Of a stretch of DNA of 64,000 nucleotides, positions 4,366 to 48,632 are shown in pieces (the stretch's first letter is position 1; each line of letters begins with the position of its first letter). The stretch is from Camelus ferus. Lineage: Eukaryota. A program made the translations under genes and the position numbers. The stretch covers positions 85,438,001 through 85,502,000 of the forward strand of contig NC_045696.1 of the NCBI RefSeq assembly GCF_009834535.1, read 5' to 3'. The notes under the pieces were generated by a model, which saw only the letters and a program-made list of their open reading frames with translations, did not search any database and was not told where the DNA came from.

Positions 4366-4437
4366 CTTTCGTACGTGTAGTAAATGTCAACTCCCTACCA
4401 TGCTCTTTCGATTGGGTCATCAGTCCTGTTTCCTTAT
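4366..4437 (-). other. Candidate 72-nt internal exon (phase 1-1), reading xKETGLMTQSKEHGRELTFTTRTK; gene unidentified
   Basis: Minus strand: tttactcaatcttcttccctccttaatAG|ATAAGG...ACGAAAG|GTaact. Length divisible by 3, one open frame, 3 CpGs in CpG-depleted surroundings. Confidence 0.4.
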
Positions 4438-7149
4438 CTATTAAGGAGGGAAGAAGATTGAGTAAATATGAATATAGATTTACAAAACAACAACAACAAC
4501 AACTAAGAACAATACAAAAAAAAATGAAACTGGACCTAAAAATTAGCAAATAAGACAATTTTTCCTCTTTCAGATACAGCTAGGAAATCCGAGAAAGAAA
4601 AATCAAAAGCACACAAATGAAACTATGCAGTGAAGACAATTAATGTTGTTTTTTTTTTTATTTCAAAATAAGCAAAATAAATTCCAGCTGAGAATTGTTC
4701 ACTTAAATTTAAGATTTTTAAGAATTAATAAAAGACCGTCAATGAACTCTTCTTAATGGCTAAAATGCCTCTATTGGCGTTTTGAGTTGTGTTCATTCTC
4801 AGTCCCTCTTAGAGGTTATTGAAGAGAAACAATGTGTCTGCAAGCTTTTAAGAGAACAAAGAGTGTATCTGTCAGTTCTACCCATGATTTTAGGCATTGG
4901 TGCCTCTGATCATCAATTTACTTTAGCTTTGCTCCTGACTCACAAGAATGTTAAGTACTCAAGGGATTAAATTCTAGTCTCTTGAGGTTCTGTACACAAA
5001 TAGGCTGATTTGGTCTAGTAAGCAAATGAGATTTGTTTTACAAGTAGATACCAGCACAATTACTGAAACTAAACACAAATAGAAAGAGGAGAGAGTTGCT
5101 AAGCCAAGAAAAGTGTCAGTGTTTTAGAACAGGGAGATAAAAGACTAATAGGGCATCCCCTATGAATGAGACCAGTATCTGACCAATTCTAGAAGAATGA
5201 CCTTGGCTAAAATCTTCCTAGTGTTTAAGACACTAGATATTTTATGAAATACAGTGATACAACCCTATCTGAACTCCCATTTTCTTTTTTTTTATCCTTA
5301 CAAACAAACCTAGCTATAGCTTAATTCAGCAGTATAGAGATTCCCAGAATTGTTTACAAGTTAAAAAAAAATCTCAAAATGTGAGAGAAACTATCAGAGA
5401 AATATAAACAATTCTTGTTTGTATTTTAATATTTTTTTCAATATCTTGTATTTTTCTAATTCACGCTTACATCCAGGAACTGTTGAAGAGGGAAAAGAAA
5501 TGAAGTTCTATTAATTACCTTGCACATAGATCTCAGCCAAAAGCTAGAAAATTTAATGTTAATTTATTCCACGTATTAGCCTAGTGCAATGTATACTGGA
5601 AAATTTGTAAAATAATATATAATTTTACAATCATGAGGCTTATAAATACAAAAGGAATGTATTTATCAATATGTTATAATGATGCTTATAGAGCAATAAG
5701 TGACATAGTAATAAATGATGAGCCTAATAGCGTCAAAGTAATGTTCAACTTACATATATTTCAAGCAAAATAAAAATTTAAAAAGATCCTTTTTGTATAT
5801 GTTATGATTTTGATGAATTAGAAACTAAGCATATATTGAGGTATTAAATTCTTCTCAATTTTTCCCTGACTTTCATCTAGGAATTGCTGAGTGATTATTT
5901 TTCTTACTGAGAAATGTACAAAATCTGTTTTAGAGCTTCTTATAAAGGAAAACTTTTAAAAATTGTGCAACCGTTTTTTAAACCTCAACCAACAACTATG
6001 CAAATATCTGTGGAAATTTAGCTGGAAACTTATCATCTTTGATGATTTCAATTAGTTGTTCTTATACACTAACAGGCTTTGTTTAATACTTTTTAAGAAA
6101 TATTTTCTTAAAATCTACTTATAGTTTTCTTCTGTTTGAGTTTTGAACAAATTAGAAAATCCTGAATGCCAAGGTTTGATTGTTTTAAATTTAAACATAT
6201 TCTTTAAAGATAACATACTTAACATTTTTTCCAATAAATTTCATGGTGACAGAAAATTCTCCAAAACTGTATAACATGACTTTTTTCCAAAAGCACTTAC
6301 TTTTGCTATTGTTTAAAACTTCACTTTTACATTGAAGGGACAGGTTGTGTTTATGTTTTAGAAAATATTTTCTAGTTATTATACAACAAAACCCACTTTT
6401 CATGATAGATCAGGTTTTAAACAATTTCATATGTAAATTAGTAGCTCACCTTTAAACTCAACAAATTATTTGATACTTTTTCCCAGTACACATCTAAACA
6501 TCTAAATTACCAGCAAACATCTATGTCATCTATGTGTTCAGATTATTTTTATGGTGTTAACTATCTCATTACTAAGAATCGGAATTTTTTTTTTTTTTAC
6601 TATTTAAGATTATAAAATCTATAAATCTATTTAGTGGACAAAATCTACTGAAAGTAAATCAACCCTTTTTTATTGTGGAAAGCTCACCTTCTCTCAGGCC
6701 TACCTTGTTTACTACCTAAGGCTATCATGCTTGATCATCTGATAACTGGCACAAGAAAAAGCACCAGTGTTAATAGCCTGGTAGTATTAAATATTAGTAA
6801 GTATAAATGTGTTCCTTAACTTTAGAGAAGATAAATAGAAATACTAAGATATTATTTTTTAACTCAATGGATTTTCTTACTTGGAGACCATTAAAGTAGA
6901 AAAACAAAGTTCTGGGCTAATGGAAAAAAGAGATACTAGAGAAGAAAGATGAAAGATAATTAAAGAAGTAATAAGGACTGAGCAGAAAAGAGAGTAAGGA
7001 AAAAGAAATCCTGAATATTAGTGGCATTCTCTCAGTACCAGGCTCAACACAACATTCAACTCTAGAATGAAAACTTGATGTATAAATATTGGAAATCAGG
7101 TTTATACTCAAAGAAGGCAGAGATAATCACAATTGAAAAAAAAAAGAAA

Positions 7150-8220
7150 AAAAAAAAGGAAACTTGGTATGTCTCTTACTCTATCACTCTGATTAGATTT
7201 TCTAAGGTTGGATATATGCATATGCAAAATCCAGCATTCAATTTAATTATATCCAGGTATGAGTTCTCTTTCACGTAACATGATGCTTTTGAGATTCATC
7301 CATATTTTTGTATTAGAGTCCTACTGCTGTTGTAACAAATTAGCACAAATTCACCAGATTAAAACAACATAAATGTATTCCTTTACAGTTCTAAGAGTCC
7401 TTTGCCCAAAACAGTCTGAAAGGGCTAAAATCAAGGTATCAGCACAGGTAGTTCCTTCTAGAGTTTCCAGAGGAGTATCCATTCCTTCTTGCTTCCAGTA
7501 TGCACAGGCTACCAGCATTCCCTGTCTCCCGGTTACATCACTCCAATCTCTGCTTTTGGGATCATATCTTCCTTTATTTCTTTCTCTCTCTGATCTTTTG
7601 CCTCTCTCTTGTAAGGACCTCTGTAACTACATCCAGATAATCTAGGGTAATCTCCCCATTCAAGATTCTTCATTTAATTACATCTTCAGAATCTCCTTTG
7701 CCAGATAAGAAAGCATTCAGAGGTATTGACAATTAGAACTTGGCCATCTTTGGGAAAGAGGGAGGGCATTATTCAGTCTACCACACTGCACTTGCCAGTG
7801 GTTTGTTGTGGTTTATTGTTGAGAAGTTTTTCATTATATGAATTTATCTCAATTTGTTCATCCATTCACCTGTGGATGGATATTTATATCTGTCCCAATT
7901 TTTTGGTTATTGTGAAAAAGCTATTGTAAACACTAGTGCATAAGTCATTGTGTGGACATACTGTTTTCATTAATCTTGGATAAGTACTTAAGAGCGAGGT
8001 TCCTGGGTTGCAAGTAAGTATATGTGTCATTTTGTGTGCAGGAACCATATTGTTTCCCATACTGGCCATTTTCCAGTCTCCTCAGCAATCTATGAGCATT
8101 CCACTTGCTCAGCAATTCAAATTCTCAGAGAACTTTTCCTGTCATTTGTTTGTTTGTTTGCCATTCCAGTAGGTATGTGGCTGCACCTCACTTGACCTTT
8201 TAATTAAATTTCTCTAATGG
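7150..8220 (-). mobile_element. Old L1 (L1ME-like) 3' fragment, antisense, split by an MLT1 LTR
   Basis: 'tttgagattcatccat' before the LTR and 'tccattcacctgtggatggatattt...gtgtggacatactgttttcatt' after it. Confidence 0.65.
7309..7785 (-). mobile_element. MLT1 (MaLR) LTR, MLT1C/D-like
   Basis: TG...CA ends; 'tgctgttgtaacaaattagcacaaa...aaaatcaaggtatcagca...ggcattattcagtctaccaca'. Confidence 0.85.
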
Positions 8221-8224
8221 AGCT

Positions 8225-8500
8225 ACTTGCACTCCTTCTTGCAGGATGACATATGCAAAGGAAGCTTGTCTGGAGAAAGCAAAATCAAAAGAGATATGAA
8301 GTAGAGAGATGAAGAGAGTACTCCCAGAGTTTCCAGTCATCTCCAGAGAGACACATGCTTCAGATTCTGAGGTCCATCACTCTACTTCCCTTGATTTTGT
8401 AAAATTCTTAGTGAATTTTAGTGACTTAAGGTCGATTCCTATAATAAACACTGTTTTGTTTGCTTGTATATACTAGTTTGAGTTGCTAATTATGTTTCAC
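8225..8500 (+). mobile_element. Degenerate MLT1-like LTR fragment
   Basis: 'ccagagtttccagtcatc...aataaacactgttttgtttgcttg...tagtttgagttg' resembles an MLT1 3' end. Confidence 0.4.
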
Positions 8501-8569
8501 CAAAATTCCAAATTAAATGCCCAAAGTTTGAAGTTGTAGGGGCTAGATTACCTCAGTATATAAAAGATT

Positions 8570-10855
8570 ATTTTGTTGGGAGATATTTGATTCAACCTCC
8601 TTACTAGTTATAGGTCTAGTCAGATTTTCTATTCATGATTCAGTCTTGGTTGGTTGTATAATTCTAGGAATTTATCAATTTGCTATAGCATCAAAAAGAA
8701 TAAAATACTTAGAAACAAATTCAACCAAGGAAGTGAAAGAGCTGTACATTGAAAGCTACCCAAAATGATTAAATAAATTGAAGACACAAATAAACGGAAA
8801 GCTATTTTATAATTATGGATTGGAAGACTTAATAATGTTAAAATGTCCATACTACCCAAAGTGATCTACAGATGCAATGCAATTCCTATCAAAATTCCAA
8901 TGGCATTTTTCACAAGGAAAAAAACCCTAAAATTTTCCTTGTGGATTCATATTGAAACTCAAAAGACCCTGAATAGTCAAATCATCCTTGAAAAGAAGAA
9001 TAAAACTGGAGGTATCAAATTTCCTGATTTCAAACAATATTATAAAGCTACAGTCATCAAAACAGTATGATATTGGTATTAAAAAAAGACACATAGATCA
9101 AAGGAACAGAACAGAGAATCCAGAAACAAACCCACACATATACGGTCAATTAATGGCTGACAAAGGAGCCAAGAATAAACAATAGGGAAAGAAGAGTCTC
9201 TTCAAGAAAAGGTGTTTTGAAAATTGGATATCTACATGCAAAAGAATGAAATTAGACCCTTATCTTACACCATACACAAAAATCAACTCAAAATTTGTTA
9301 AAGATACAAATGTAATACCTGAAACCATACATCTCCTAGAAGAAAACATAGGGAAAAAGCTCCTTGACATTGGTCTTGGCAATGATATTTTTTGGACTTG
9401 ACACCAAAAGCAAAGGCAACAAAAAGAAAAATAAACAAATGAGGTTACATCAAACTAAAAAGCTTCTGCACAGCAAAAGAAACCATCAACAAAATGAAAA
9501 GGAAATCTATGAAATGGGAGAAAATATTTGCAAAAAAAATTGCAATAAAGGGTTAATATCCAAAATGTACAAGGAACTCTTACAACTCAACAGCAGAAAA
9601 ATAAAATAATCCAATTAAAATTGGGCAAAGACTATTAAATTTAAAAAGCTAGAGATCTAATCTGTTCTTAGAGACAATAATTAGTACATACATGAAAACT
9701 AGAAACAATGTGCAGTATACTGTATATATGTACTTACATGCAATATAATGTGTATGTGCAGTCGAACTGTAATAATTCTACATAATAAAGCTGAAAAGGG
9801 GGAGAAAATAGGCAAATACCCTGAATAGACATTTTTCCAAAGAAGACATGAAAATAGCAAACAGGTACATAAAAAGGTGGTCAATATTATTAATTATCAG
9901 GGAAATGCCTACTCAAAACCACAGTAATATATCACCTCACCCCTGTGAGAATGGCTATCATCAAATCGATAAGCAATTAACAAAAGCTAGCAAAGATGTA
10001 GAGAAAAGGGAACCCTTGTACACTGTTGGTGGAAAAGTAAACTAGTACAGCCACTATGGGAACAGTACGGAGGATCCTCAAGAAATTAAAAATAGAATTA
10101 ACATATGACCTGGCAATCGCACTTCTGGGTATATATTCAAAGGAAACAAAACCATTCTCTTAAAGAGATATCTATATTCCTATGTTCATTGCAACATTAT
10201 TCACAATAGCTAGGGATGGAAACAGTCTAAGTGTCCATCAACTGATGAATAAAGATAATGTGATATATATATACACACACTCACATATATATTTAGTGTA
10301 AATGTAGCATTATTCAGTCTTAAAAAGGAAGAAATCTTGCCATTTGCTGCAGTATGGCTGAACCTAGAGAACACTATGCTAAGTAAAGTAAGTCAGAAAA
10401 ACACTGCATTGTACCACTTATATGTGGAATGTAAAAAAACCAAAATCAAAACCAAAACCAAAACCAAAACCAAAAAAAGAGAAAATGTCAAACTCAGTAG
10501 AAACAGAGAGTAGAATGGTGGTTGCTAGCAGCTGGAGAGTGGTGGAAACTAGCAAGGGGTTGGTAAAAGGTTGCAAGCATTCAGTAACAAGATAAATACG
10601 GTCTGAGATTTAATGGATAACAGGATGACTCTAGTTGATAATAACTGTACTGTATAATTTAAATTTGCTAGAAGAGTAGAACTTAAATGTTCTCATCAAA
10701 AAGGAAAAAAGATAAATATGTGAGGTGATGGATGGAACTTAATTAACTTGATGGTAGAAATCCTTCTACAATGTATATGTATATCCAATCATCATGTTGT
10801 ATGCTTTAAATATATGACAATTTATTAATACACCTTAATAAAGCAGAAAGAAATA
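8570..10855 (+). mobile_element. 5'-truncated L1 (L1MA9/10-like): ORF2 C-terminal part plus 3' UTR, with an inverted 5' segment at ~8570-8680
   Basis: ORF fragments such as [23 protein letters not shown] and KRHIDQRNRTENPETNPHIYGQL match L1 ORF2. L1MA-type 3' UTR ends in aataaag near 10840. Confidence 0.92.
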
Positions 10856-11529
10856 TTAATAAGGTAGTCTGTTCCCTAAATTTCATCCATAAAATATAAT
10901 CCTATTTTACCATTTGATTTTAATGATGTGAACAAAAACTTTAGTCACTAAGAAAGTAATAGGCTATATATTGCAAGACTTTGTTAATGATAATACTTAT
11001 AAAGATAAATTATTTCATAATCTATTGACTGTTTCCCCAGTGGAAGCTGTGAGGAAATCTGGAGCAAATATTGACGCTTTCAAGCAAATAGATTAAAATG
11101 AAATACATTGGAGTAAAGCTTTGTTGAATATGATTTTATACTGAATTATGATGGTTTTAATTTAACTTTATACTTTTCTGTGCTTTTTGCTTGCAACAAA
11201 CATAATAATTTTTAACAATAAAAATAAACATACCCAAATCTACACCTATGCAGACACACACATACACATTCACACACACACACATGCACGCATACACCAG
11301 CTGGTCTGTTATTCCTCTGAAAAATCATTAGCTATTATTACATAAACAAATCTCTAGGGCTGTTCACTCTATAATATGCTACTGAGAGTTGCTCCTATTG
11401 TAAACAAAGCAGTTGAAAATCATCAGTTTGCAATTTTGAGCATCTGCCTTTGTGACTTTGATTTTGGGGGCTCAGATTTCAATCGCCAATTTCTTTATCT
11501 GTCCATGATTTCCTTTTCTTTTAAATTGA

Positions 11530-11640
11530 GGTTTCATAGGTGTATATGTCTATCAAAATTCATCAAATTGTACATTTGAAATATGTGTAGTTTACTGTAC
11601 AGAAATTATACCACAATAAAAGTGTTTAAAAAATAAATAG
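11530..11640 (+). mobile_element. Old L1 3' terminal fragment
   Basis: 'caaaattcatcaaattgtacatttgaaatatgtgtagttt...aataaaag'. Confidence 0.6.
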
Positions 11641-12229
11641 ATAAATTGAGCTATGGCTTGCATCATTTAGCAAGATGCACAAACCACAAATGAATATTTA
11701 AATAGATTTTTATATACTTATTCATATGCCCTTATTAACCACAAGCCACATTTTAGAATATTTCCAGCTTCCTATCTGGCTCCCTCGCACTCTTTACCAG
11801 TCGACACCACCACTTCACTCCTGAGATAATGGTCATGACATTTTAATACACATTGTCTCTTTCCATAAGCATAAAACTTTTCTTATAATTGCCTCATGTC
11901 TGGCTGTTCAAGTAAATGACTGCTTTTTAAGTTGCTTTCAGACTTTAGCATTCAAATGAATTCTGTATACTTCACATAGTACATAATTTAATTCTTACCA
12001 TTCCAAACATATTCACTAAATTTGATAAGAATTTAGGTTCATTTTTCAATGTTGTTGGATGACTGCTTTCTCTTTTAAAGGTGTCCTTGAGCTCCAAAAA
12101 CCCAAAATGGAGTATGCTAATACCCAGTTTTGAAGACAGCCCCTCCTAATCATACTGTCCAAACATGGTAACAATATATCTAGCTGATTTCTAATGAGGT
12201 GATAACAGATAAAAAGGCTGAAATTTAGA

Positions 12230-12670
12230 CATGATATATGTTAATTTATATTATATCTATACTATCTGTAGAACAGATGTCAATCCAAAAAGGACAAATT
12301 CTTACAGAGAAGTTGAAGATGGTAATGAGATAATAAAAGGATTTAGAGTAGAAGAGAAAAAGCTGAGGTGTAACTTAATAATGATTTCATAAATACGAAT
12401 ATTATCAGTACAAGACGGAGAAAGTTTGTTCTTTACCTCTAATGGAGCCAGAGCCCAAATCATCATCATCATCTGAAACTGAAACATGAACATTTTATGT
12501 TAGGAGTAATTAAACATTTTTCACAGTAAGAATAGTTAAATATATAGAACTTTTCTTTCTAGAGGTCTATATAAGTAAAAAAGACACCAATCTGTCAGAG
12601 ATGATTTACTTGCAGTACTTTCTGGAAACTGAATTAATAACCTCTAAAAAACCCTTTTTATCCCTAGGAC
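12230..12670 (+). mobile_element. L3/CR1 LINE 3' fragment
   Basis: 'gaagagaaaaagctgaggtgtaacttaataatgatttcataaatac' and 'taggagtaattaaacatttttcacagtaag...acctctaaaaacccttttta' follow the order of the CR1/L3 3' region. Confidence 0.55.
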
Positions 12671-15600
12671 ATTTCAGTTCATTTTTAATGACATGCTTTA
12701 AAGAAAGTATTAAAAAGAAAGTTTATCTTTAGCAAGTTGGTATTAAAAAATCAACTTATATATATAATTTTGAACTTCCTTCACCTTGTTAATATCCAGT
12801 TCATAGCATACTTATATGGGGTTACAAAATGAGTCACAATTAAAAAGATCAAAAATTCAGATTTTGCAAAATGAGAGAGATGCCTTTATTTGGTACTAGA
12901 TAAAATGCTGTAATGTTAACAGTAATTTGTGATTGTTTGACTAATTATGAGTTACATATTTTGTAGTACAAGATAAAATAGTTATCAAAACAGCAATAAT
13001 TGCAATAATGATTTCAATAGTAACAGAAAATCACTTTCTGGAAACAGATCATGAAGAAAGAAAATGAATGAATGAATTAAAGTTTGTAAAACAGATACAA
13101 GTGAAAATTTCTGTCAAAAAATATCAATGAAACCTAGTATACACCTGTATTCTAATGCAAAGAGACACTATGTAGCTGCTGTCACCAGAGAGGAGCACAA
13201 CAACAAGACAGCCTGAATTCAAAGGATAAAATCTAAGTATGAGACCTTGCACCAAGAATTGGTGTGGTGGATTGGAATATGCCAACCAGGTAAGCACAAT
13301 TTTCAGACCTCACACAAAACAGAAATGATTACCTTACACAGATATCCCTATACCCAGTAAAATGCTATATAAACATGGTAATTTCCTGGAAACATTCTGT
13401 CATAACATGACTAAAATTATCTCTAATAGATTAATCTTCTGGTAAACTCACCAGCCTAGGGGAGCTCTGAGTTTGTGTGTTTGTGGGGGTGAAATTAAGC
13501 ATGAAAATTATATAATGGACCTCTAAAAACTGAAACTCTGTATCTATTGTTCATTGTCCCTGAAAAAATAAGTTGTTTAATAACAAATATGAACACAGGA
13601 ATAACTGTATAATGAATTGTTATTTATGATGTTTCAACAGGAAAAAAAAAAAAAGAGCACTGCAGAATACTGATGGAGGTCTTTACCACTCTGTGAGGCA
13701 CAACTGTAGGTAGGTAGCAAATTCTGATAACCATAGAGTTTTGATGTATTATCTGTAAATTTCTTGCTTTTACTGAGTTGTATTCTTTACTGCTTTTGTA
13801 CTAAATATATCCAGTAATTAGTGGTTCAGTCCAAAGCCATAAAATCCTTGAACTAAATGTTTTTCAATAGCATTGTGGATTCAGTGAGTCCAGAATTATA
13901 GGAAATTATTACAAGAAAATGTTCAAAGAAGATCGACTCACTTTCAAAGTTAGTGGCATTCAAACAGGATGCACTTTCACATACTCAAGGAACATGATAC
14001 AAAAAATCCTTTGTCTTTAAAAGCAATGCTGCTTTTTTTTTAAAAAAAAAAATCTCTGAGAGTATGATCTGATTCTCTATGAGTCGCACAGTGCAGAAAA
14101 GTGGGCTCAAGAACACACTGTGCACACCTCTTGGTGCACAGTATCATCAAATTCCATGTGTGACAAGACTAATGATAGATGACTCCAAAAAAACATGCAA
14201 AAGCTCCATAACCCATATAATTTAATAATACTAAACCACAGGGAAATTCCTTTTCAACTAAAGTTTAGGCAGTAATCCCCAGAAGCACAATACTTACTTC
14301 ATCCTAATTATAGACACAATTTTACTTTATATAGACCTCCTCATCTCCTAAATTTTTTTGTCTTAATTATACTACAGCATCTCTCAATGGCTCAAAATGC
14401 TGCATTTATCTTTCTAAGCAACATTATATTCCCAAATGGTGAATTTAACAGAGATCTACACAAAATTCCTACCCCAGCAACAATGATAACAAAAATTATA
14501 ACCAGAAAAATGCCAAAAATGCTTTAGAAACAAACACTATTATAAGCAAAGCACTGACTGTGAAAAATATGTACATGACACTTAGTTACACTTTCAGTCC
14601 TATAGCCACTCAAGGCACTTACTGAATTCACTGCATGATAGATTACGTTGTTAACATTTGGATATACCTTAATTATGAAAATATTAAAATTGTGATCATC
14701 ATCATCATCAAAAATCTTTCCAAGTATTTTTAAGTACATGATAGGAATATATGAAAATTCATCATTTCTTCTTAGGTACTATTTAAAATTTTTTTAATCT
14801 TAAAATATCTTCAAAACATTAATTTGTAGTAACTAATTCACATTAACCAAACTGATATTCACATTTGCCCTATCATGCTTAAGAGTTTCACACTAGTAAA
14901 TGATTGTCTTAACTTTATACCCTTAAGCATAAACTTTCTGGTCACTGGTCATAACAGAGCAATTGAGTTGAAATGCTTATTATATAGTATCAGTTAGAAT
15001 GTAATCTTCAATGGAATAGATCTACTCTGCCTAACATTCATGGGAATGTTAGTCAATCTGTGACATAATACATGAAATCAACTTATACGTTTCACAATAA
15101 AAGGCTATATTTTTTTTTAAAAAGAAGATCAAGATATCCGCATGATTGCCACTATAAACAAAAATTTTATTTTTAATATAAATTAAAAAGTTAAATTCTA
15201 TTTGATTTATAAGAGTTGCAGCTTTAAGAGTTGCCAAAAGAGAGTTAATCTCAAAATTCTGTCAGCCCTACCCCCATCACTGCCACCCCCACAAATCACC
15301 CAGTCTTTACTGGCATTGACCCTAGACATGAAAGTTTCTTGGGTTAGGTAATGTGATGTTATTTCTGTGCTTAAGAGTAATATCACAGGCAAGTCTTTAT
15401 TAATCAGATGAGTAAACATTTTCCATTCTGGTGATTCAGTCTTTCAGTTCAAATGTTTGCTTTTTTCTCAGTCACACTTTCAAACTGTTCAACATAAATT
15501 TTTAAATCCACAAACACAAATTTCCCTCAAGGACTTTTCTTCTTATATTAAACCACATCTAGAAATTACAAATGTCAAAATTATTTCTACTCTGCTGAAT

Positions 15601-16124
15601 CAGCCCAAGAACAAAATTGCATTTTGAAGACAAAATTAAAATGATTTTTTCTCTTCACATATCTGAAGTATCTTAAAGATATGTTGAATATATATAGAGA
15701 TTCAGTAAGTTTTATAAAACCTAATTCACCTTTTAAATCTTCCTAGCAGAGTGAACTGACAAGTCATGTAAATTTCACTTTCATAATTTAATGCTTTTGA
15801 AATATACACATATAAATACTTTCAGAAAGCTAACTTTCAAACAGTAACCCTGGCAAAGGGTAATCGAACTGTTTACTTTTCTATATAAACAATGAAGTTT
15901 AGATGAACATTTGAAGTTCATTTGAAATGTGTTAGCTATTCTGACTGTAAATCAAGAACTGTAGTTACTCCAGATCCCATGATATCTCTTCATGAATCAG
16001 AATTGCATGTTATAACCCTAACACTAATATAAACAAATTACAATATATAAGATATACTTTTTCTTAGGTTGTGTTAAAGTATCAATTTTGTAGATGAATG
16101 GTTCCAACTTCACTAGTAATGTAA

Positions 16125-16260
16125 GGCACCACTTCTCAAACTGCACTGGGTATAAGGACCATCTGGGGATGTGTGAAGATGAAAATAACGATTCTGTTGG
16201 TCTGGGTTCCAGCCTGAGAGTCTGCATTTATAACAAGCTCCCAGCTGAGGCATTACTGTT
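16125..16260. mobile_element. MER5A-like hAT MITE fragment
   Basis: 'ttctcaaactg...gattctgttggtctggg...cctgagagtctgcatttataacaagctccca'. Confidence 0.7.
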
Positions 16261-16591
16261 TATTGGCTAATCTAATAAATGTTTCTAGTTTCTTTAGAGT
16301 GATGCCCCATTCCTAGTCCCTTGTCCCTCTATTACACATACATTTAAGTAAGTGGCTGGGGAAAGAAGGAGAACCTGAGAAGTATTTTTTTTAATTCCTT
16401 GGCATGTAAAAAATGGTGGAAATAAGGCAAAATTCAGAAGTAATTAAAGTAGATACAATATTTCCTAGGCCATTTTCTATCCAATGACCCTCTCTCTATT
16501 ATAAATTTTTAACTCCCTTTCCTACTTCTGGTTTCTGAGTACAGAAAACTCTCCCACAATCCAAATCCACAATATAGAAGATGCTTCCCAT

Positions 16592-17118: not shown

Positions 17119-17189
17119 CATGTTCCAAAAAATGAGTTCTGGTACCACTCCTCAATTAAGTATTATCTTAGAGCTGAAATAGAAAATTA

Positions 17190-19950: not shown

Positions 19951-19959
19951 TAGATGAAG

Positions 19960-21200: not shown

Positions 21201-21289
21201 ATTTTCTCAAACACTATCTCCATTACATTGCCTTAATTGAAAATTGGCTTTCCAAGGAGCTTGTTGATAAAGATAATAATGCTGTATAT

Positions 21290-24255: not shown

Positions 24256-24269
24256 CAAAAAGCCTAAGG

Positions 24270-24994: not shown

Positions 24995-26059
24995 CTGAAG
25001 TAAAATTGTTTTGTAGTATGTTAAATAATAAACCATACTAGTGTTGGTTTATGTTCATTTAGTGATAGAAACAATAAATTCCTCCTAAAACAAGTTAAAA
25101 ATAAACTGCTTTTGAAATTAAAATAAAATTTAAGCCTAGGTTTATTTTTAAATAATAAACAAAGAAATAAACAAAAATTCTAAACAAATACGTTTGATTA
25201 TTTGATTAATTTTTAATATTCTAAATGTATAGATTTTATGCTTATTTCAATTAGGAGAGTAATTCATAATTATCTTCATTATAGATCTTTGTGGTCAGTC
25301 ACCCAACTAGATCATTGCCTAACCCTCTACTGGACTTCATTCAAGAGTATAGATATATCAGAGGGAATTTGTAGAAAGCTCACAGCATCAGACACAGGCT
25401 GCTAATTACCTGACAATAGAACAATAAACCTCCACAGGCTTCATATGTCGTGATTCAACACCCAATTTCTGACCAAAGGAACCGATTCTACATTTTTCTG
25501 AGGAACTTGTTTTTAATACGATATTCATGAAGCTATGCAGGAATAGTTGACGTCCACAAAGAGAAGTTCACAGAAAGGATGGGGGGATTCACTACAGGCC
25601 CATACACAGTTTCTTTGAAATACAGTGATCGTCATAGTGTTTGGACTTTTTAGATGGCATTGTTTTCCCTTTTTGGCAGATAAATTCAATTTTTCAAACA
25701 AGTCAGCCTCCACTGTCAAACCCTAAATGTAGGGGCAGCTTTATCACTTACATTTGGCATGTAAGACTGTACAAACCTATTTGGCTAATTTAATTCACTT
25801 CAAAGTGGTAATTTTCCAAATAACCTCTATTGGCCTGAAAGAGTTAAAGTCCTGCCAGGTGGGTAGTTTAGTCCTTTCTCACTGGCACAAGCATATGACA
25901 ACATAAATGAGATCTGTACCTTCGGTTTCCACACACACAAACAAGCAAAACACCTAGCCAAGCAAACAGTGCAGTACACTTCCCATGTTAATAGGCTTCT
26001 CTTAATCACTGCAACCAAAATATGTATTTAAGAATGATTTTTTATTATATTAACTATCA

Positions 26060-27520
26060 GGATTTTAAAATACTTGTACTATGAAGTACAACCCATACAC
26101 AGGGAAGTACACAAATCTGTAGTGCAACAAATTATCCCAGAGAACAATCATGTAACAATCATCCAGGTTAAGCAAGACCTCAACCAGAGAAGCCCCTTTA
26201 TGTATCTTTTCCACCTTTACCACTTCCTTCCTCCCCAAAAATAACCAATATTCTGGTATCTGGTACTAGAGTTTAAACTTGCCAGTTTTAGAATTCTTTA
26301 TAAATTGAATTGTATAGTATATATTCTTTGGTCTCTAGCTTATATACTTAAGATTCATAATTTTCTGTAGCCATAATTTATTAATTTTCATTGCTGCACA
26401 GATTCTGTTGTATGAGGGCAGCTATGAACATTTTTATATAATCTTTCTGTGCATGCCTTTCTCTTGAAATATACCCGGGAGTGAAATTGTTGGATCAAAA
26501 AGTATGCAGATTTGAAACATTACCAAAAAATATTAAACTGTTTTCCAAATTGTGTTTGTACCAATTTACCCTCCTACCAGGTACACCTAATAGTTCCTGA
26601 TTCTTCACATCTCCTACAATATTTTATATTTTTCAAATTTTACCCATTCTAGTGAATTAAAAAATGCTACCTTATAAAAGGCTTTCCTTGCATTTCCCTG
26701 AATAGTAGCAAATTATGTACATTTTAAATGATTTTGTAGGATATTTTGATACTACCTTTTGTAAAATATCTCTTCTTGTCTCGTTTGTTGCCAATTACAT
26801 GTGTTAAAAATATCTTTTCATATTTTGTTTTATGTTATTAATCTGTTAAGAGAGTTTTATTCTGAACAGATGTTCTTAATTTAATATAGTCAACCTTACC
26901 ATTCTTGCCTTTATAATTAACACTTTTTTCATACATTATTTAATTTTTTTTTTTGCTGTTGTAATACTGCGAAGATATTCTACTTTATTACCTTCTAGCT
27001 ATACATATTGCATGTCACATTTCAATATTAAAATCCACCAGGGATTGATTTAGGGATATGAAGTGATACAGAGGTCAGTTTTCTTTCACTTAGTTTTTAT
27101 TTAATCAAATTGATATTCAACCGACTCATTGAAAAGACCATCTTTCCTCCACTACTCCTCAGTAACCTCATAAATCAAGTGTCCAAGAGTATGTGGGCTC
27201 TCTATTCCATTTCATTGATTTATGTATCTAACTTTTCTTTAATACTACAGTTCCTTATTTACTGTGGCACTGCAAAAAGACTTGCTGAAATTCCTCCAAC
27301 AATGTTATTGTTCATCAAGAATGTCTTGTCTAATATTGGCCCATGATATTTCTCTATGCATTTTAGAATCAGCTTGTCAATTTTCATAAAAACGCCATTG
27401 GAGTTTTCACTCAGACTGCAGTTTATATACAAATATGCAGGGAATTTGAGACTTCTACCATGTGCAATCTTCTAATCCATAAAAAAGAGTGTTTTCATTT
27501 ATCTCTCAGTAAAGCTTTCT
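26060..27520 (-). mobile_element. Old L1 (L1ME-like) 3' region, antisense
   Basis: 'atacccgggagtgaaattgttggatc...ttttagaatcagcttgtcaattttc'. Confidence 0.75.
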
Positions 27521-28164
27521 GGGCAGAGTTCTTATCTGGTATATTAGTCAGGGTTCTCAAAATTAACTACCACATCCAGTTTTGACTATTTCAGTTCAAA
27601 GTATTTGTTATATTTTATGCACTGAAAATGCATTTTTAAATATTTAAAAGATATTTTATTTTTCCATTTGCATTTGTATGTAGCTATCAATCTTTTTATT
27701 TCAACTATTTTTCTTATTTTAAGTTATTTTTGTTAATTGTAATTTCACTGAGCTTTTGGTCTAAGAAAAGATTTCCAAATATTTATAATACCACATTAGC
27801 CTGGCTATTCTGTATTACTCAAGTGATGACTTGCACATTTCAGTATTTTCATTTTTTGACTATATTTTTCCAAAATAATCTTTTTTAGGAATGCAGTTAA
27901 AAATCACAGATTTTAAATTCACTATTTCAAATTAAAATACCAATTTGGCATAGTAAACATTTATCCATTTGCATCTATAAAATTTTGGTTTTAAGCAATA
28001 AAAAAAATTCATCATTGTTGGAATACTCCACAGCAGTTTTTGTGATATGGATTCCATTTTCATAGTTTTACTAGTTTCTATTTTAAAGTGATAATTGACC
28101 TAGCATTATTTAGTAAAACCTCTGTACTCACTATGTCTCCAATAGAATAATGCAAACCTTTTTA

Positions 28165-28425
28165 AAATTTTCATTTTCTAAATAAAAATTACATAATATT
28201 TAAGTTACACAACATGATTATTTGATCTACATAGAGAAATGGCTACTACACTCAAACTAATTAACATATTGTCTGCTCACACAATTACAATTTGTGTGTC
28301 TGTGTGTGTCTGTGCGCCTGAGATCTTTCTTCTTAGCAAATTTCCAATATTCAATACAGCATTATTAACTAGAGCTACCATGTTGCAAATGAGATCTCTG
28401 GATTTATTCATCCTACATAACCTCA
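28165..28425 (-). mobile_element. L1MA-type 3' end, antisense
   Basis: 'cttagcaaatttccaatattcaatacagcattattaactagagctaccatgttg...agatctctggatttattcatcctacataac'. Confidence 0.8.
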
Positions 28426-28429
28426 AACA

Positions 28430-29780
28430 TACCACTTCATTGTCTACTGACTTCCATTACTTTTATGAAAAGTTAGTTCCAGGTTAACTATTGTTTCTTT
28501 GAAATTAATCTGTCTTGTTTCTCTAGCTGCTGTTCAGATTGTCATTCTTCTCTCACTCTCTCCGGGAATTTTACTGTTTTACCTAGGAATTTTTTTTAAT
28601 TGAAATACAGTTGACGTACAATATTATGTTAGTTTCAGGTGTACTACATAGTGATTTGACATTTATATGCATTACAAAATGATTACTTCATTAAGTCTAC
28701 AACATACAAAGCTGTTACAGTATTATTGACTATATTCCTTACGCTGTATATTACCCATCCCTGTGGCTTATTTGTTTTATAACTGGAAGTTTGTACCTCT
28801 TAATCCTCTTCACCTACTGAAGGGGTGAACCCAACCTCCCAACACCCTCCCCTCTGGCAACAATTCATTTGTATTCCGTATCAGAAAGACAAATACCACA
28901 TGACCTCACTTATACGTGGAATCTGAAAAAACTAAACAAGCAAACAAACAGAACAAAGTGAAAACAGACTCATAGGTGCAGTTTTCTTCCCACTAATTTT
29001 GTTTGGCATTCATAAGGTCTCTGGGGTTTACTTATTTGTTGTGATCAGTTTTGAAAAATTCTTGGAAATTATGTCTTCAAAAATTGCTTCTATTCCATTC
29101 TCTCCATTGTCTTCTGGGACTCCAATTACATATGTATTTGATTTTCTCAATGTTCTGTTTGTCTCTTAAACACTCTTCTGTGTTTAACATACTTTACCTC
29201 TCCTTGGAAATTTCCATCTGACCTATTTCAAGTGCACTAATTACGTTTTTTAAAAGCATGTCTATTTTATTGTTGAACCAATCTATTAAATTCCTAATTT
29301 CAATTCTTGTTTTTCTTCATTTCTGGAGTATTCATTTGACTGTTTTTTTTTTCTTGTAGTCTTCCAAAAATTTCAATGACTTAGCTTCCTGAATATAACA
29401 GCATAGTTGTTTAAACTAATTTAATGCGGCTAGAGGTACTAGGAATCTGGAATTATCTTAATTCATTTTCAAGTTTGCTATGATTTGAAATTAGGCATCA
29501 ATCCATAGGACAGCTAAACTAATGTTGTTCACCCAAGTTTTCCCTCTAGCCTTGAGAGAGTCTCAACAGAATTGCTCAGCTTCTCAAACACTGAGCTACC
29601 TCTTTCAGAATAAGCCAACGCTCCCCAAAAGAAAGTGGCACCAAACGCCAACCATCTTCAGAATTCTACCTTTCAAATCTTGGCCTCATAACTTTCACAG
29701 TCTTGTTAGTTCTACAGTGTTTTCAAACAATTTGTTTGTAACTTCATCCAGCTTTTAAAAGTTGCCTTCAGTATGAAGAT
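28430..29780 (-). mobile_element. Old L1ME/HAL1-like ORF1 region, antisense (host of the 28590 insertion)
   Basis: 'atcagttttgaaaaattcttggaaattatgtcttcaaaaattgcttct...ctgggactccaattacatatgta'. Confidence 0.55.
28590..28975 (-). mobile_element. Laurasiatherian-type L1 3' end with an inverted 5' segment (28883-28975)
   Basis: T-tract, then 'aattgaaatacagttgacgtacaatattatgttagtttcaggtgtac', switching to sense 'agaaagacaaataccacatgacctcacttatacgtggaatct'. Confidence 0.85.
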
Positions 29781-30559
29781 CGATTCAAATTACCTAATCT
29801 GCTGCTATAAAAAATTTTAAGTCTGAACAATTAATTTTAAACTCTTCGAAGAGTAACATGAAGACAAAAGATCTTAATAACGTCATAATTTTCAGATGAC
29901 TTTTCTAAAATATGAAAAATTTCTGCAGAGTGAAAAAGCATGAATTAAATTAGTTTTTTTAAAAAACACCATAACATACGAGGACTGAAACATTCATTTC
30001 CACATATTCCTGTAACATTAAACACAGTACTTATCAAAGCTATCTCTTTTATTGTTATTGTCTTGGCAAATTAGATAGTGCCTGGTATATTGTAAGTCCT
30101 CAATACATCTTATAAAATTGAATGCATTTGATAAAAAATAAAAGAATTTTCATCAAAGAACTTGGGCTACTTTCAAGTGGCTAATTTTACCCTAGCTATC
30201 TACAAAGATGCATATAAAAATACTAAACTAAACATCAATGGAAAAATGGTATTGTTTGTTTTATAATTGGAAGTTGTACCTCTTAATCCCCTTTGCCTAC
30301 TGAAGGGGTGAACCCAACCTCCAAACCCCCTCCCCTCTGGCAACAACTCATTTGTTTTCTCTTTCTTAGGTTCTGAAGCTCCCAAATGTCAATATAACAA
30401 CACATTCAAGAAACTTACAGGGTAAATCGTATATGCTAAAAATATGTTCATGTATCCAAATGTATGAATAAAAATATAATTATTATTAATAATCTACAAA
30501 TAAAACATACATTTGAAATAGTATATAAAATTTATTAATAATTTTCTAGTATCTCTGTG

Positions 30560-31193
30560 ACAACTTGAAGCTTTAGTAATCACTCAAATTCATGGAAGTG
30601 CAAGGGTTTTCATATCTAAGTATCAGGTTCACTTGAGGATGGAGCCTCAATCATTACCCTTCCTAGATACCTGATTGGTCTCTGATTTCTTCTGAATCAA
30701 GATCCAGACTGGAGCAATCTTTTTCAGTGTACACAGTTCTGCTATGGATGACAGATACTAAAGCCACCTCTAGTTGTGTTTGATTCTATCTTGGTCACCA
30801 ATATACAGTCTAACTCCTTTAACATATGTTCAGGATACACTTAGTGGTTCAGGAGTATTGGACAGAGTTTTGTCTCTAGGTGATGGGTTAGTTAAGACTT
30901 GGGGAAATGTACTTGGAGAAACATTGGTTCTCGATCCATTTTACTTGTGGCTCTAGCCATTGAATAAAAAAGTCCTATTTCCTCTTTTTTCCCAATGTCC
31001 AGCGTCCTTTTTCTCCTTTTTTACAATCAAAGTTACCACTTGCCCTTCCACATTCTCTTCTTCTATATTCAGGCCCACACTTATCTAGTCTTAGGCTGTT
31101 CTGTAAACATGTGGCTGAATCTTTCTGTCCCGTACTTTCATGTAAGGCTTTGTTTCTGCTTATCCACAGATAAATGGAGATGAGATAAAGTGC
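30560..31193 (-). pseudogene. Putative decayed large coding exon
   Basis: Strong acceptor gtgtgttttcatgtattttcCTCACcctcttcgcgttgttttctaAG. Protein-like frames linked by shifts: ALHESTGQKDSATCLQNSLRLDKCGPEYRRRECGRASG, VSPSTFPQVLTNPSPRDKTLSNTPEPLS, PEHMLKELDCILVTKIESNTTRGG, TEKDCSSLDLDSEEIRDQSG. Possible donors at 30670 or 30657. Confidence 0.3.
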
Positions 31194-31379
31194 CTTAGAA
31201 AACAACGCGAAGAGGGTGAGGAAAATACATGAAAACACACATTAATGTTTAGAGATATAACCCTGATAGATACCTTATTTATATATCTAAAAATCCAAAA
31301 AGACAGTAAAATTGGCTTTATTTTATGCCTAGTCTGTGCCAAACAGCATGGAAAAGGTGTCATTTAACAAGAACCATGA

Positions 31380-31510
31380 TCTTGAGGTGGATGTTTATCG
31401 ATGAGGAAACTAAACTTCAGACTAAACTGATTTGCCAGATGTCACACAGTAAGTAAGAAAAACAGCCAGAATTTAAACCCAGGTCCTGCTGACTTCTAAG
31501 CTCGGTCTCT
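31380..31510 (-). mobile_element. MIR SINE
   Basis: 'gatgaggaaactaaacttcaga...tgatttgccagatgtcacacag...agccagaatttaaacccaggtc'. Confidence 0.75.
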
Positions 31511-31934
31511 GTTTTTCTATTTCATGCTTATACTTCTGTAGCAGATATAAAAATCCACATGTCTTCATCTATGTCTTTTCTCACTTTAGATGTTTCATGT
31601 AGGTTTTTTCTTACAGAAAATAGTACTTTTTTACAGGCCTCAATATCTGAAGCTGAAGAATTTTCACAGGCAATGAATTAGTCTATATAAAAACTCAATA
31701 AATAGTAGGCATTTTAATAAGGTTAATGTAGGGCCATTTTTTTCTTATCCTAGTCCCTATGCTCCAGCCAAAAGAGGGACAAAAGAGAGTTGATTCTCCT
31801 CCTGATCCACTGTGGCTGCCTTTGCAAGTGATGAGTTGAACCAGAGTACCCAAGTTACTGTATGGATGTCATTTAAATAGGATTGTTGGACAAGGGGGAA
31901 GAGGAGGCTTGTGCTAATAAAGAAGCATACTAAT

Positions 31935-32110
31935 CATATGTATATTTGATAAGCATTTACTAATGGCCAGGAAACTTAAAGAAAGCTTTGCATGTATTAC
32001 CTAATTAATAATGGTATGGGTCATTAAATCTTCACCTTAACTCTATGAAATAGGTAGTCTACTGTCATTATTTTATATGAAAAGAAATTGAGAAGGCATA
32101 AGTTACCTGT
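31935..32110 (-). mobile_element. MIR SINE fragment
   Basis: 'gctttgcatgtattacctaatt...ctctatgaaataggtag...ttttatatgaaaagaaattgag'. Confidence 0.55.
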
Positions 32111-32181
32111 AGTGGTAACTCTGAGTAGTTTAAATTTTTAATTTGGCTACTTTTCCAATTTTTGATATTGGTACTTTAGAT

Positions 32182-32325
32182 CAGTGCTTCCTAAACCTTA
32201 GGGTGCACACATCACCTGAGGATCTTATTAAAATGCAGATTCTGACTTAGTAGGTCTCAGGTGGGGTCTGAGATTAGGCATTCAAACATACCCCCACAGA
32301 CGATACTGTGAAAAATAAGGCTTTA
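32182..32325. mobile_element. MER5A hAT MITE
   Basis: 'catcacctgaggatcttattaaaatgcagattctgacttagtaggtctcaggtggggtctgaga'. Confidence 0.85.
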
Positions 32326-32589
32326 GATCACTGATTTTCTGTCAAGCTAAGTATCATTCCTAAAGGGCTTTCATATTGATTTTAATATCAGTGAAAAATA
32401 ACTTAGTATTAATATTTAGATTTATTAAATGAATGTTGATGACCAGATGTATTTCAAAATCAAAAGACTGTTTTCACAAAGACAACAGTTCAATTTAGAG
32501 AAATATTTTAAGACACACCTCCCTTTCCCCTCCCTCAGGATGCTTTCAGTATATACAAAATACACTACCATATACCCCATATACCAATA

Positions 32590-32760
32590 AAAATAGGTAT
32601 CATTTATAAAGCATCTACTGTGTGCCAGAGACTAAACTAAGAGCATTAAGTGCATTATTTTATTCAGTACTATTAGCAATCTATGAAGTGCTATTATATT
32701 CCAAATTTTACATATAGATAAGTACAGGCATTAATAGTTTAACCGTCCGATATTACTAGC
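32590..32760 (-). mobile_element. MIR SINE fragment
   Basis: 'agcatctactgtgtgccaga...ctaagagcattaagtgcattattt...ccaaattttacatatagataa'. Confidence 0.55.
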
Positions 32761-33394
32761 CCTGGGTAATTTCACTATCTTTTGATTCAATCTTTATCTT
32801 GCATTTCATGTTACTTCGCTCTCTGAATTTTGCCATATACCAGTCTCACTGCTTCTCTATACTTTACCTCCTGATACTAAGTACGGAGATCTTTCTGAGT
32901 TAGAACCTCAGCCCAGAGGTCAGGGTGAGTCTTATAAGACAGGCTGGAGCAGACAGTGGAACAAAGCAGTCTGCAGGAGAAAAATCAAAATCATAGTCAA
33001 GCTGGGTTTGGATTATGTCACAGCCAAGGTGACAGCTAGTAAAGGTGTGGCAAGGTTCAAGGCAGAAAATAAAAGAATGAGTGACAGGAACAGAATATCA
33101 CAGGATCCAGAGCAGAAAGCTGTTTGTAACAAAAACCAAGGCATAAATGACAGAGCATTGGTGGCTCGAGTGGACTGGGTGCTGGCTTGTGACCCGTCAG
33201 CACACCTGATGGCTGATAACTGAATAGATGATTATAAACTTGGTGCTTTGTCACAATGAGCCTGGCTTTCCATCTCATCAATGTCTCTAGAGACTGACTT
33301 TACTTTCCTGGCTTTATACAAATGCTGGACAATATTCCCAGTCAGATACTGCTCCACAATGACATGATCTGCTCTAGCCTCGATTCGGTTTCTA

Positions 33395-33880
33395 GAACCA
33401 CAGATTTATTATTTTACAGTTTTGTAGGTCAGAACTCTGGTGAGCTCTAGAGGAGATTCCATTTTCTTGTTCATTCAGGTTGTGAGCAGAATTTAGTTTC
33501 ATTTAGTTGTGAAAATAAGGTCTCTATTTCCTTGCTGATTTTCAGGTAAGGGTCTTTCCCAGCTTCTGGAGATAATCTTTATTTCTTATTTCATAGCCCC
33601 TTTTCTCCATCTTCAAAGCAACAGCAGACAGAATAATTATCATGCTTAAAATTCTTCCTCAAACTTCTGTCACATCTCTCTGTCTCTCTCTGAACCTAGC
33701 CAGGGAAGGTCTCTACTTTCAAGAACTTACGTGATTAAATTGGGCCCACATGGATAATCCAGGATAAATTCACCATTCCAAGGTCTGTAATCTTAATCAC
33801 ATCTGTAAACCATGCAATTTTATGTATTCACAGTTTCCAAGGATTAGGATATGGACTCTTTGGGGACAATTCTTCTAACA
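33395..33880 (-). mobile_element. MLT1E-like LTR
   Basis: 'ttcattcaggttgtgagcagaatttagtttc...gattaaattgggcccacatggataatccaggataa...cttaatcacatctgtaaa'. Confidence 0.8.
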
Positions 33881-33899
33881 CAAGCCTCTGCTATGTGAG

Positions 33900-34400
33900 A
33901 TAGGCTTATTTTTAGACAGGTTTATTAGCTGCAAAAAGAGACAAAACTAGGTGAATCAGAAAAAAATTTACTAAACAATGTACGCTAATCATCAGAAGTT
34001 CCAGGAGGACCCGACAACTGGGTTTAGAAACCATGCCACCAAAAGTAATACCCAAAACAGCACCACTAAACTATTCACAGGCTTGTTTCCATCACTGGCA
34101 AGGTGAACCATGAACACAGGACCCTACCCTCTGCAATTCTGTCACAATTGCTCCTCAAATTCAGTGTCTGTGCCAAGCTCTGCCATATTTACCAGTATTC
34201 ACCATATTCCTTAAAAAGACTGCTTCTTCTGTTTTTTCCCAGCTGACCTGAAGTATTTTGGAGATATATTTTACTGGGAGAATCTGAGTCAAATGTCTGT
34301 CTCTCAGCTGCCAAGAAGGCAAGGAAATTCGATCTTGGAATCTTCATTGGTATCAATTTTGCCAAATATACAGGGAAAATGTAAAGAAAAAATGCTAGAC
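33900..34400 (-). mobile_element. Old MLT1 (K/L-like) LTR remnant
   Basis: 'tagctgcaaaaagagacaaaactagg...aatttactaaacaatg...ctcagctgccaagaaggcaagg'. Confidence 0.45.
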
Positions 34401-37400
34401 TACAAGTGTGTCACACTATATGATCCTCCTTCTCAGATTCTAAGAGAGGTAATACTGCCCATCTAGGCTTCATCTCCAAAGCAGAATGAGAATACTTACC
34501 CAGGCCTCCTTAAAAAGCCCACGCAGAGTTCTATCTGCACTGTGCTAATAATATCTGTGGTTGCACTTTGAAATGACTACACCATTTAAAGCATCAAAAG
34601 ATCACAGAATCATAAAAGTTAAGCCCCAAATATTTAAGAGTGCCTATAATTCTGCAGCACAAGTAATTTTGATACTTGCAGAATTTTGTGTCCATGCAGG
34701 ATGTTTTTCCCCAGTTGCGGTACTCTGATGCCTGGATTAAATGGCACTGATAATAGCTTGTGTTGCAAACGTTACTTTTTAGCTTATAAATTACATCAAC
34801 TACAAGAAGTATTTTCTATCATATTTGATATTCATAAAGTACTGTGAACAATAATTTACTTATTATCATCTTTAGTTTACTATAGAATAATCACCTAAAA
34901 TTAAGTGCTTAAGTTGGGAACTAAATTTGAATTCCCTCTGTCTCATTTTCCTCATTTTAAATTGGGATGTCAAAATCTAGTTCATGAAATTTTTTCAGAA
35001 TTAAGTAAAACGCAAAACTTTATTACTATTAACTTAATACAAATTCAGAACCAGAAAGGATTTTAAAGGATAATTAAGATAACAGTGGCCCAAATGGTCA
35101 ACAGATGATTCAGGGTTCAAGATGGGAAAGGGCTAATATTTGCTCACATTCGGTCCAGGATTTTCCCACTAGAATCAAACAGGCATTTTCAACTACAGCT
35201 GGGGATACAAACTCTGTGGAAAAAGAAAGTGTCTCTGGAAAATCTCATTTTCCCTCTGAGAATTGAAATAGTGGCCCTAGCCATGAACTCTCCAGAATCA
35301 TAATACGCAGTATAAACTGTAACTTAAAGGCATTTCTGTAAATAGCACACCATAAAATCATGTCACAAGAACAGATCAAGTGATGTGGCCCAGATACTCA
35401 CTATACACATAGTTTATTCAACAGTAATTTTTGAATTCATTGAGAAATGCTATCCATGAATTTGAAGCTCATATCCTGTCACTTACAAATTCAAAACAGT
35501 CTCTAAAGCACCAAGCACAGAGTTGGCAGCTTGGGTTTGAATTTCCTTCCCTTCCAGTGACTAGGTGTGGGCCGGTGCAGTCATTCCAAAATAAGCAATT
35601 CCTTAATGAGTGACTGCCTACTATGTTAAGGCCTCATGCTAGGGATGGGGGCTGTGATTCACAAGGCAGACACCACTCCAGTCTTCACTGAGTTTATAAT
35701 CTTAAGAATGCTAGTTGCTGAAAGATAGCCATTCAACAACTAATTACACAATTACTCAATTACAGCAGTTTGAATTAAAGCTACCAAAACTAAATAATAT
35801 ACTTTCCACAATGAATCTATTCCTAATTGCAAAATCTGGAAAATATGACTTCCTCCAAAGCAAATCATATCCTATGCCATTCACTGTAAAAAGAGTAAAG
35901 TAGAAAATATACTAAGTTTGGAGGTGGTTTAAGGATGCCAGACAACAGAAAAAGAAATTAATTTCTAACACTTTACTAGTGAACCCTTTTCTTAAATACC
36001 ACTTTTAATTTGAAAGTAGCTTCTTACAACTTCTTACAGCTGGTCAGAATTTATTCCATGCTGCATTATTATGAGATGTAGGACAACAGCTTCATTGATA
36101 ACATGCAGTAATAACTGCTGTCTGGTTATCAGCAATGGCCTACGACAGCTGGGCTCATAGTTTCATTGCTGGTCTTTAAAAGTGGAGTGCATCAATACTA
36201 ATATATTCCAAAAGAGCACAGGTGAATTAAAATAGGATAAAATTCACTGGTTGCTATGGACTCCATTATTTTAATTCTCCAATTGTTAATAAATATAACC
36301 TGTCTTATTTATCTACCTATCCTAAAACAGAACTGTAATTTGGGATACTAGAATTTTGAACCCTTAAATAACTAATGTTTAGGATGACCATTTCAATAGC
36401 TAAACATTAAATATTTTTACAAAAGTAAATATGATTAGTTATACTCCATCTAGAGTATTTCACTAACTCTGTTTTGCCTATAAAATTAATCACTACACTG
36501 TAAAGTTCATTTTCTATTAAAAAATAAGTTATCTGAAAACTTTCTGGCAAATTTTCTTTCTAACTTTAAGAAATGTAATGAAATCTCTAAATAAGAATGT
36601 CTCCTTCCTTCAGATTAAGTTGCTAGTATAAAATCTAATCATTCATTGCATCACTTGTACTGATTCAACACATTAAAACTATAGAGTTCTCTGGCACTTA
36701 CACCAAGAATCATATGCTTCTCTTTAACACCGTAGTATCTCCTTTTGAAGCTGTTACATTATTACTGGAAATGGTTAGCTTGTCTATGTGACACATTTTC
36801 ATTAAAAATATCTCATTTGGAATAAATCATGGTGATTCAACTACTGTCTGCAAAAGACAATAACACACACAACCAATAAGCATTAATATTATTTTTAATA
36901 CAGGATATTTCACTTTGCTGGCAAAATAATTCTGTTTATATTAAAGAAAAGGTGCATCATTATTATTTAGTGTCACAAATATTTTGCATAATTCAAGATG
37001 TTAAACCCACTTTCAATATAAAGAAACAAAGCAATTGGCTTTTGTGATTTTTCTTGAGCATTCAAAATAAAATGCTCCTGACTTCAGAAAGAAATGTTCC
37101 TACCACTTTAATTTGACGGCATAGCCATATTTGAAAACTGCTTTAAGATTCAGCAAGTTACAAGAAAGGAGGTTTAGCTTTATAAGGGCATGTGGGGAAA
37201 GTATTTTTTCTGTCATGATATTACACAAAACTAGTACACATACTTATTTAATCACTGCAACAGATATTAGAAAAAACAGTTAAAAGAGCTTTCTGTCACA
37301 GTAATTATTAATGATGAAATCTTTATCTGCTTAGCATTGGGAGTCTGTCCAATTAGTTTCTGTGGCTCTTGAGTTCTGCATAAATACGATAAAATTTGCT

Positions 37401-37612
37401 TGTTTCCATCGTGATTTTTCTAAGGCTCTCTTTCCTGGGCGAATCTCCAGATTGGCAAGCTCAAGCAGATTTTAAAATATCCTTTCCATATATCACCCAC
37501 ACTTGTTCTGCTTGCAGATGGATTGACGTCTAAGCTCAGAGGGTTGTAACTAAGCTGCTTTTCTCGGCAGAAAAGTTCATTTTGCTTCAGCTGTTGCAGA
37601 TAGCTCCCTTAC

Positions 37613-37768
37613 CTCCCACTAATTCAGTATTTTTCAATTGTTCCAGCCTGCTTCCAACTGCTCAGGCACACTGTTCAAGGATCACAGCAAGGATTGCCAA
37701 GTTAGGGCATCTTTTCCAGAGGGCGGATCCAAAGTCATTCCTCTTTGTTGATACATTACATAACTTGT
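37613..37768 (-). other. Candidate 156-nt exon (phase 1-1) with a single in-frame TGA
   Basis: catctcacccatgtAG|ACAAG...GTGGGAG|GTaagg; reads xKLCNVSTKRNDFGSALWKRCPNLAILAVILEQCA*AVGSRLEQLKNTELVG. Confidence 0.3.
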
Positions 37769-48545: not shown

Positions 48546-48632
48546 TTAATAATTGTTTATCTCTGATTACATGTTGAAATTACATCACTTTAGACACATT
48601 AGGTTTAATAACAGCTGTAATTAAAATAAAAA

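Follow-up and report, generated by a model that had tools for sequence, protein, structure and literature searches.

Genomic Setting and the Likely Camel Counterpart of RUS/LINC01322

The window analyzed here is a 64,000-nucleotide stretch of the Camelus ferus genome (C1:85,438,001-85,502,000) that consists of AT-rich mammalian DNA with a GC content of mostly 28-42%. Family searches located a SLITRK open reading frame of 995 amino acids (aa) at C1:85,678,642-85,681,626, which we take to be SLITRK3 from synteny, and a cholinesterase tail exon at C1:85,273,231-335, which is assigned to BCHE by synteny. Such searches also placed the OSTN family at C1:65.7 Mb and the KCNMB family at 75.0-75.3 Mb. 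The camel order OSTN, KCNMB, BCHE and SLITRK3 is the order of human 3q26 in reverse, which puts the window in the interval from BCHE to SLITRK3. Within the window, positions 47983-48550 and 57150-57764 are inverted, related repeat copies 9 kb apart, with a core of 287 nt at 82% identity.

The interval between these two genes is known for the lncRNA RUS/LINC01322/Gm20754, which was reportedly studied by Schneider et al. in 2022. In mouse as in human, Slitrk3 and Bche flank RUS, and the paper concerned describes a 912-nt mouse neural transcript (Gm20754) and its exon 1 of 232 nt, the mouse RNA being reported as neural-specific (PMC9187872). The four camel segments discussed below, A to D, agree with RUS/LINC01322 in position, strand and flanking genes, SLITRK3 on one side and BCHE on the other (names by synteny).

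Two mouse exon-1 primers (Table S2, PMC9187872) have colinear minus-strand matches 133 bp apart in the camel, at C1:85,662,250 (15/20) and 85,662,117 (14/20). Both fall within a small CpG patch, which some 10 kb separate from the CpG island of SLITRK3. Taken singly, these matches are no better than the best chance matches; jointly, the colinear primers, the CpG patch and the exon length give moderate support to a putative camel RUS exon 1 at C1:85,662,250-85,662,014 on the minus strand. Its two donors would produce exons of 199 and 237 nt, compared with 197-200 nt in human and 232 nt in mouse. A motif that we take to be CTCF-like lies about 75 nt upstream. The candidate is near the SLITRK3 promoter, points away from SLITRK3 and is on the strand of the segments. 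The highly conserved exon 2 of 113-114 nt was sought with the mouse exon-2 primer, which has no genome site within three mismatches; the exon-2 mapping left out the approximately 165 kb from BCHE to the window.

The window begins and ends 160-224 kb, and segments A-D lie 186-220 kb, downstream of the likely exon 1 on the same strand, so that A-D are found at 0.48-0.57 of the distance from this exon to BCHE. Measured to the end of the human BCHE gene, the human distal exons are at about 0.45-0.54 of the way. We take the human gene XLOC_048449 to be LINC01322, on the basis of its start coordinate plus the 113-nt exon 2 seen in supplementary file 3 of PMC5577775. The same file gives the offsets of the distal exons used above, 253-307 kb, and shows XLOC_048449 to be a lncRNA of several exons, the distal ones numerous and variable (Hezroni et al. 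2017, PMC5577775). The resemblance to the camel window would thus be one of variable distal exons at about equal relative position. It does not extend to the exon sizes listed there (94/181, 71, 46, 237, 167 and 141 nt), none of which matches A (156 nt) or B; D (72 nt) is near the 71-nt exon in size, but its position fits poorly.

Pairing human exon sizes with camel splice pairs was rejected as uninformative and misleading. One such combination, of 166 and 112 nt and 8.4 kb apart, was dropped; its 112-nt member is in a repeat that looks to us like an LTR. Elsewhere in the window, on the minus strand, two acceptors share one strong donor (56012/55926-55831; 182 and 96 nt) within a repeat, an arrangement that echoes the 181/94-nt exon listed for human LINC01322. 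Double acceptors of these sizes occur once per strand in 264 kb (1 of 230 minus-strand and 1 of 213 plus-strand donors).

The Four Segments and Their Splice Sites

The original prediction proposed that four minus-strand segments of the window are the remains of a multi-exon gene that lost its coding potential, all bounded by canonical splice sites and all enterable in phase 1. Our splice scores come from approximate textbook matrices, not from MaxEntScan, and acceptors were ranked among the 4307 minus-strand AGs and donors among 3327. Segment A (window positions 37768-37613) is a candidate exon in the form of a 156-nt AG..GTAAGG pair with one TGA in phase 1, and segment D (4437-4366) is another, a 72-nt AG..GTAACT pair that is open in phase 1; both are exactly as had been described, and an open frame is present in half of background 72-mers. 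The donor of A is strong (rank 2 of 3327) and its acceptor modest (372 of 4307).

Segment B (31193-30672) has a good acceptor (rank 118 of 4307) and is the best candidate for a transcribed piece, with all of its frames broken. Its candidate donors would give 425 nt (ending at 30769), 522 nt or 535 nt. Phase 1 meets its first stop after 17 codons, and the 522-nt form has 12 stops where about 11 are expected. Segment C (24994-24522) has a weak acceptor of ordinary rank (2037 of 4307), and its best donor follows 24522. The bases at about 24270, where C had been said to end, read CCTTAGG and contain no donor. In phase 1 its first stop comes after 10 codons, and the 473-nt form contains eight stops compared with about 10 expected.

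Hence the description of the segments as bounded by canonical splice sites is right for A and D, which are AG..GT pairs, and for the starts of B and C after an AG, but not for the end of C. That all four can be entered in phase 1 is an empty statement for B and C, given their chance-level stops. A residual reading frame with compatible phases, by which a pseudogene or fossil lncRNA would be recognized, was not found in the segments.

Two other pieces of the minus strand drew our attention. One, 0.8 kb after A and missed by the earlier description, is a single-copy, exon-like piece of 146 nt (36847-36702; TTTTGCAG..GTAAGT) with stops in every frame. The other (41023-40724) is an open frame of 100 codons that immediately follows an AG rich in pyrimidines; it is in the top 0.5% of 300-mers for absence of stops, yet is one of 18 frames of at least 90 aa; it has no Pfam or PDB match.

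RNA Signal at Segment B

Among the 24 sequencing runs listed, 12 contain part of the region 30500-31300, and two of these 12 are recorded as RNA. The RNA-recorded run X1 contains 0.52 of the words of this region, and an exon B of 425 nt (31193-30769) predicts a share of 0.51. This fit is suggestive of transcription of B as a 425-nt exon. The signal comes from one run and from word share only, and DNA carry-over or unspliced RNA could also account for it. The label of X1 is reproductive system, as opposed to the neural specificity reported for mouse RUS (PMC9187872). Runs X2-X5 (shares of 0.34-0.21) are RNA by guess only, and X6 and X7 (0.16 and 0.09) are small and were not used.

How Much Is Expected by Chance

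The window has 30 strong AG..GT pairs on the minus strand and 22 on the plus strand, and a scan of 220 kb found 1.2-2.2 pairs like A and D per 34 kb for each of the six combinations of strand and phase. The original prediction had itself cautioned that AT-rich DNA produces chance splice-like sites; such pairs are on both strands and in all phases. One pattern goes slightly the other way: seven of the 11 minus-strand phase-1 donors in the 220 kb are inside the window compared with about three expected by length (hand arithmetic). Besides A and D, five other in-window donors belong to this group, and two of them are in repeats. We give this excess little weight because A and D themselves defined the thresholds. 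The pattern of a phase-1 fossil gene is mostly not beyond chance.

These densities, the lack of good sites in C and the plus-strand splice pairs that overlap B all favor an explanation in which none of the four segments is an exon, the splice-like motifs arose by chance in DNA that is intergenic or intronic and the RNA signal of B is DNA carry-over or unspliced precursor. We regard this as unlikely, since the word share of X1 fits a 425-nt exon, the acceptor of B and the donor of A rank high, and the position of the segments agrees with the human distal exon cluster.

Search for a Lost Protein Gene

Could A-D be decayed coding exons of a gene that was lost before or early in eutherian evolution and whose remains now lie in the RUS lncRNA? 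Several properties lean this way. The lengths of A, B (in its 522-nt form) and D are each a multiple of three; the segments are single-copy DNA, with no second genomic copy of any of the four found save for a 40-nt simple repeat upstream of D; and there is the mild excess of phase-1 pairs. In a crude coding-likeness test, B ranks within the top 3-4% and C, among GC-matched sequences, within the top 3% (14% unmatched), mild scores from a test of low power in which two old LINE-1 (L1) ORF controls rank at 32% and 45%.

The protein searches found no such gene. Pfam has no family for any of eight segment frames. Among stop-free frames of at least 50 aa, it gave seven weak matches on the minus strand (145 of 146 frames), none above the curated cut-off, and no match on the plus strand (150 of 169 frames); the Pfam runs omitted five frames of simple repeats, 15 frames of the plus strand past 56.7 kb and, ahead of the counting, whatever frames overlapped one short stretch. 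Over six frames of B and C, the best E-value in the PDB was 0.54, while a positive control, a decayed L1 ORF1, was found with an E-value of 0.005. A word-based search with frame 1 of B among proteins of 30-96 aa only produced no candidate, and one with frame 1 of C against proteins of 423-2000 aa confirmed none of 373 candidates. Metagenome scans gave 296 and 545 pattern matches, none of which was confirmed, Rfam had no match, and the camel genome yielded no paralogue of the segments. The deep protein search covered frame 1 of C only; for A, D and the remaining frames, the comparison was with Pfam or with Pfam plus the PDB.

That deep search, with HMMER against 1.84 billion representatives, returned a single hit, P0004, an unnamed 77-aa ORF that forms a single-member cluster and comes from sequencing-run contigs. 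It corresponds to the first ~210 nt of C, so that in another species the start of C is covered by an open frame of 77 codons, which might be read as a trace of coding. Aligned to C with frameshifts allowed, P0004 agrees at 40 of 74 residues, with two compensating shifts and a stop, and its last residue is just before a camel TAA. A profile that included P0004 recovered nothing else (one of three candidates was confirmed, P0004 itself), and the ESM Atlas had no usable match for P0004 or for the 88-aa frame of B. Judging from this alignment, P0004 looks like orthologous non-coding DNA of another mammal.

Birds and frogs are not known to have a gene in the interval from SLITRK3 to BCHE. The human locus is present in the table of conserved lncRNAs of PMC5577775 and absent from its table of fossil-derived ones, a table whose format was checked, and one supplement of PMC10195156, searched with no format check, does not name it. 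A literature search turned up no published proposal of a lost gene between SLITRK3 and BCHE; PMC5297675 and PMC11780390, as far as the text retrieved goes, were irrelevant to the locus. The lncRNAs that PMC5577775 and PMC10195156 derive from lost protein genes resemble this locus in being conserved multi-exon lncRNAs in gene-poor syntenic intervals, but differ from it in that neither protein homology nor a syntenic lost gene came to light here.

None of the searches gave a protein hit that the segments share in colinear order, and Pfam, the PDB and, for frame 1 of C, HMMER detected no colinear match to an intact outgroup protein. With phase-1 stops at chance level and no entry in the fossil table, the protein-gene half of the original prediction finds no positive support, and an origin of A-D from decayed coding exons seems to us very improbable. 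We are just as doubtful of a broader version, that a fast-evolving protein gene of low complexity, once located between SLITRK3 and BCHE and lost early in mammals, survives as fossils in the distal exons of RUS/LINC01322, its outgroup orthologue having been missed by the screens as unannotated or too diverged.

Repeats Around the Segments

A decayed L1 ORF1 remnant is present on the minus strand at 29450-28981, 1.2 kb downstream of B, and is followed by old L1 pieces at about 27500-26900. This remnant, the positive control of the PDB search, was missed by our local DNA and tblastn tests, and so these repeat tests are limited in power. The segments had been placed in repeat-free islands, and an assignment to ancient transposons, which would have spoken against the original prediction, did not result: within this sensitivity, no repeat match was found. 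It is highly unlikely that B and C are what is left of very old transposons (L1M, L2 or DNA elements), decayed beyond the reach of pairwise comparison, with K/E/S-rich frames reflecting a purine-rich sense strand: a same-strand L1 remnant so close to B that itself escaped detection speaks for it, but neither DNA nor protein searches of the genome gave a second copy, and six frames of B and C matched no LINE-1 protein in the PDB although the control did, in tests of limited power for very old elements.

A Proposed Explanation

In our estimate, with a probability of about 0.6, A-D are single-copy non-coding DNA within the locus that corresponds in camel to RUS/LINC01322, a lncRNA gene. They lie inside the RUS locus and have no detectable trace of a lost protein, and so they are most likely ordinary non-coding DNA. 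The protein-like look of their frames would come from purine-rich, slightly GC-richer sequence. The camel locus is like RUS/LINC01322/Gm20754 in its SLITRK3-BCHE interval, its orientation, a likely exon 1 of matching length and its non-coding nature. It goes beyond the published description in one respect, as the text of PMC9187872 on the mouse transcript describes no camel distal segments, and the link of the segments to exon 1 is putative.

As predicted from these features, transcription would start at the CpG patch, some 10 kb away from the promoter of SLITRK3, and the RUS transcript would run along the minus strand toward BCHE and across the window. Its long introns may be spliced to whichever strong acceptor and donor pairs are at hand, and the distal exons that result would be non-coding and would vary, as they do in human. 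Of the four segments, B would be the likeliest to serve as such an exon or at least to be transcribed; minor exons or chance motifs may be all that A, C and D are; and none of the four would descend from a protein-coding exon. The lncRNA half of the original prediction is therefore plausible, given the strand and interval of RUS/LINC01322 and one RNA run with about half of the B region, while the fossil half lacks positive support.

Conclusions

The locus is already known, and the claim of a fossil gene is unsupported, although a very old fossil keeps a small probability, as the deep protein search covered one frame of C. XIST derives from LNX3. Should the segments prove to be fossils after all, a lncRNA whose role in neurogenesis has been tested would be added to the XIST-like cases in which a lncRNA arose from a lost protein gene, and a vertebrate gene so far unknown would come to light. 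As it stands, the result matters little: the likely camel counterpart of RUS has been placed, and the fossil pattern that had been proposed lies close to what chance would give.
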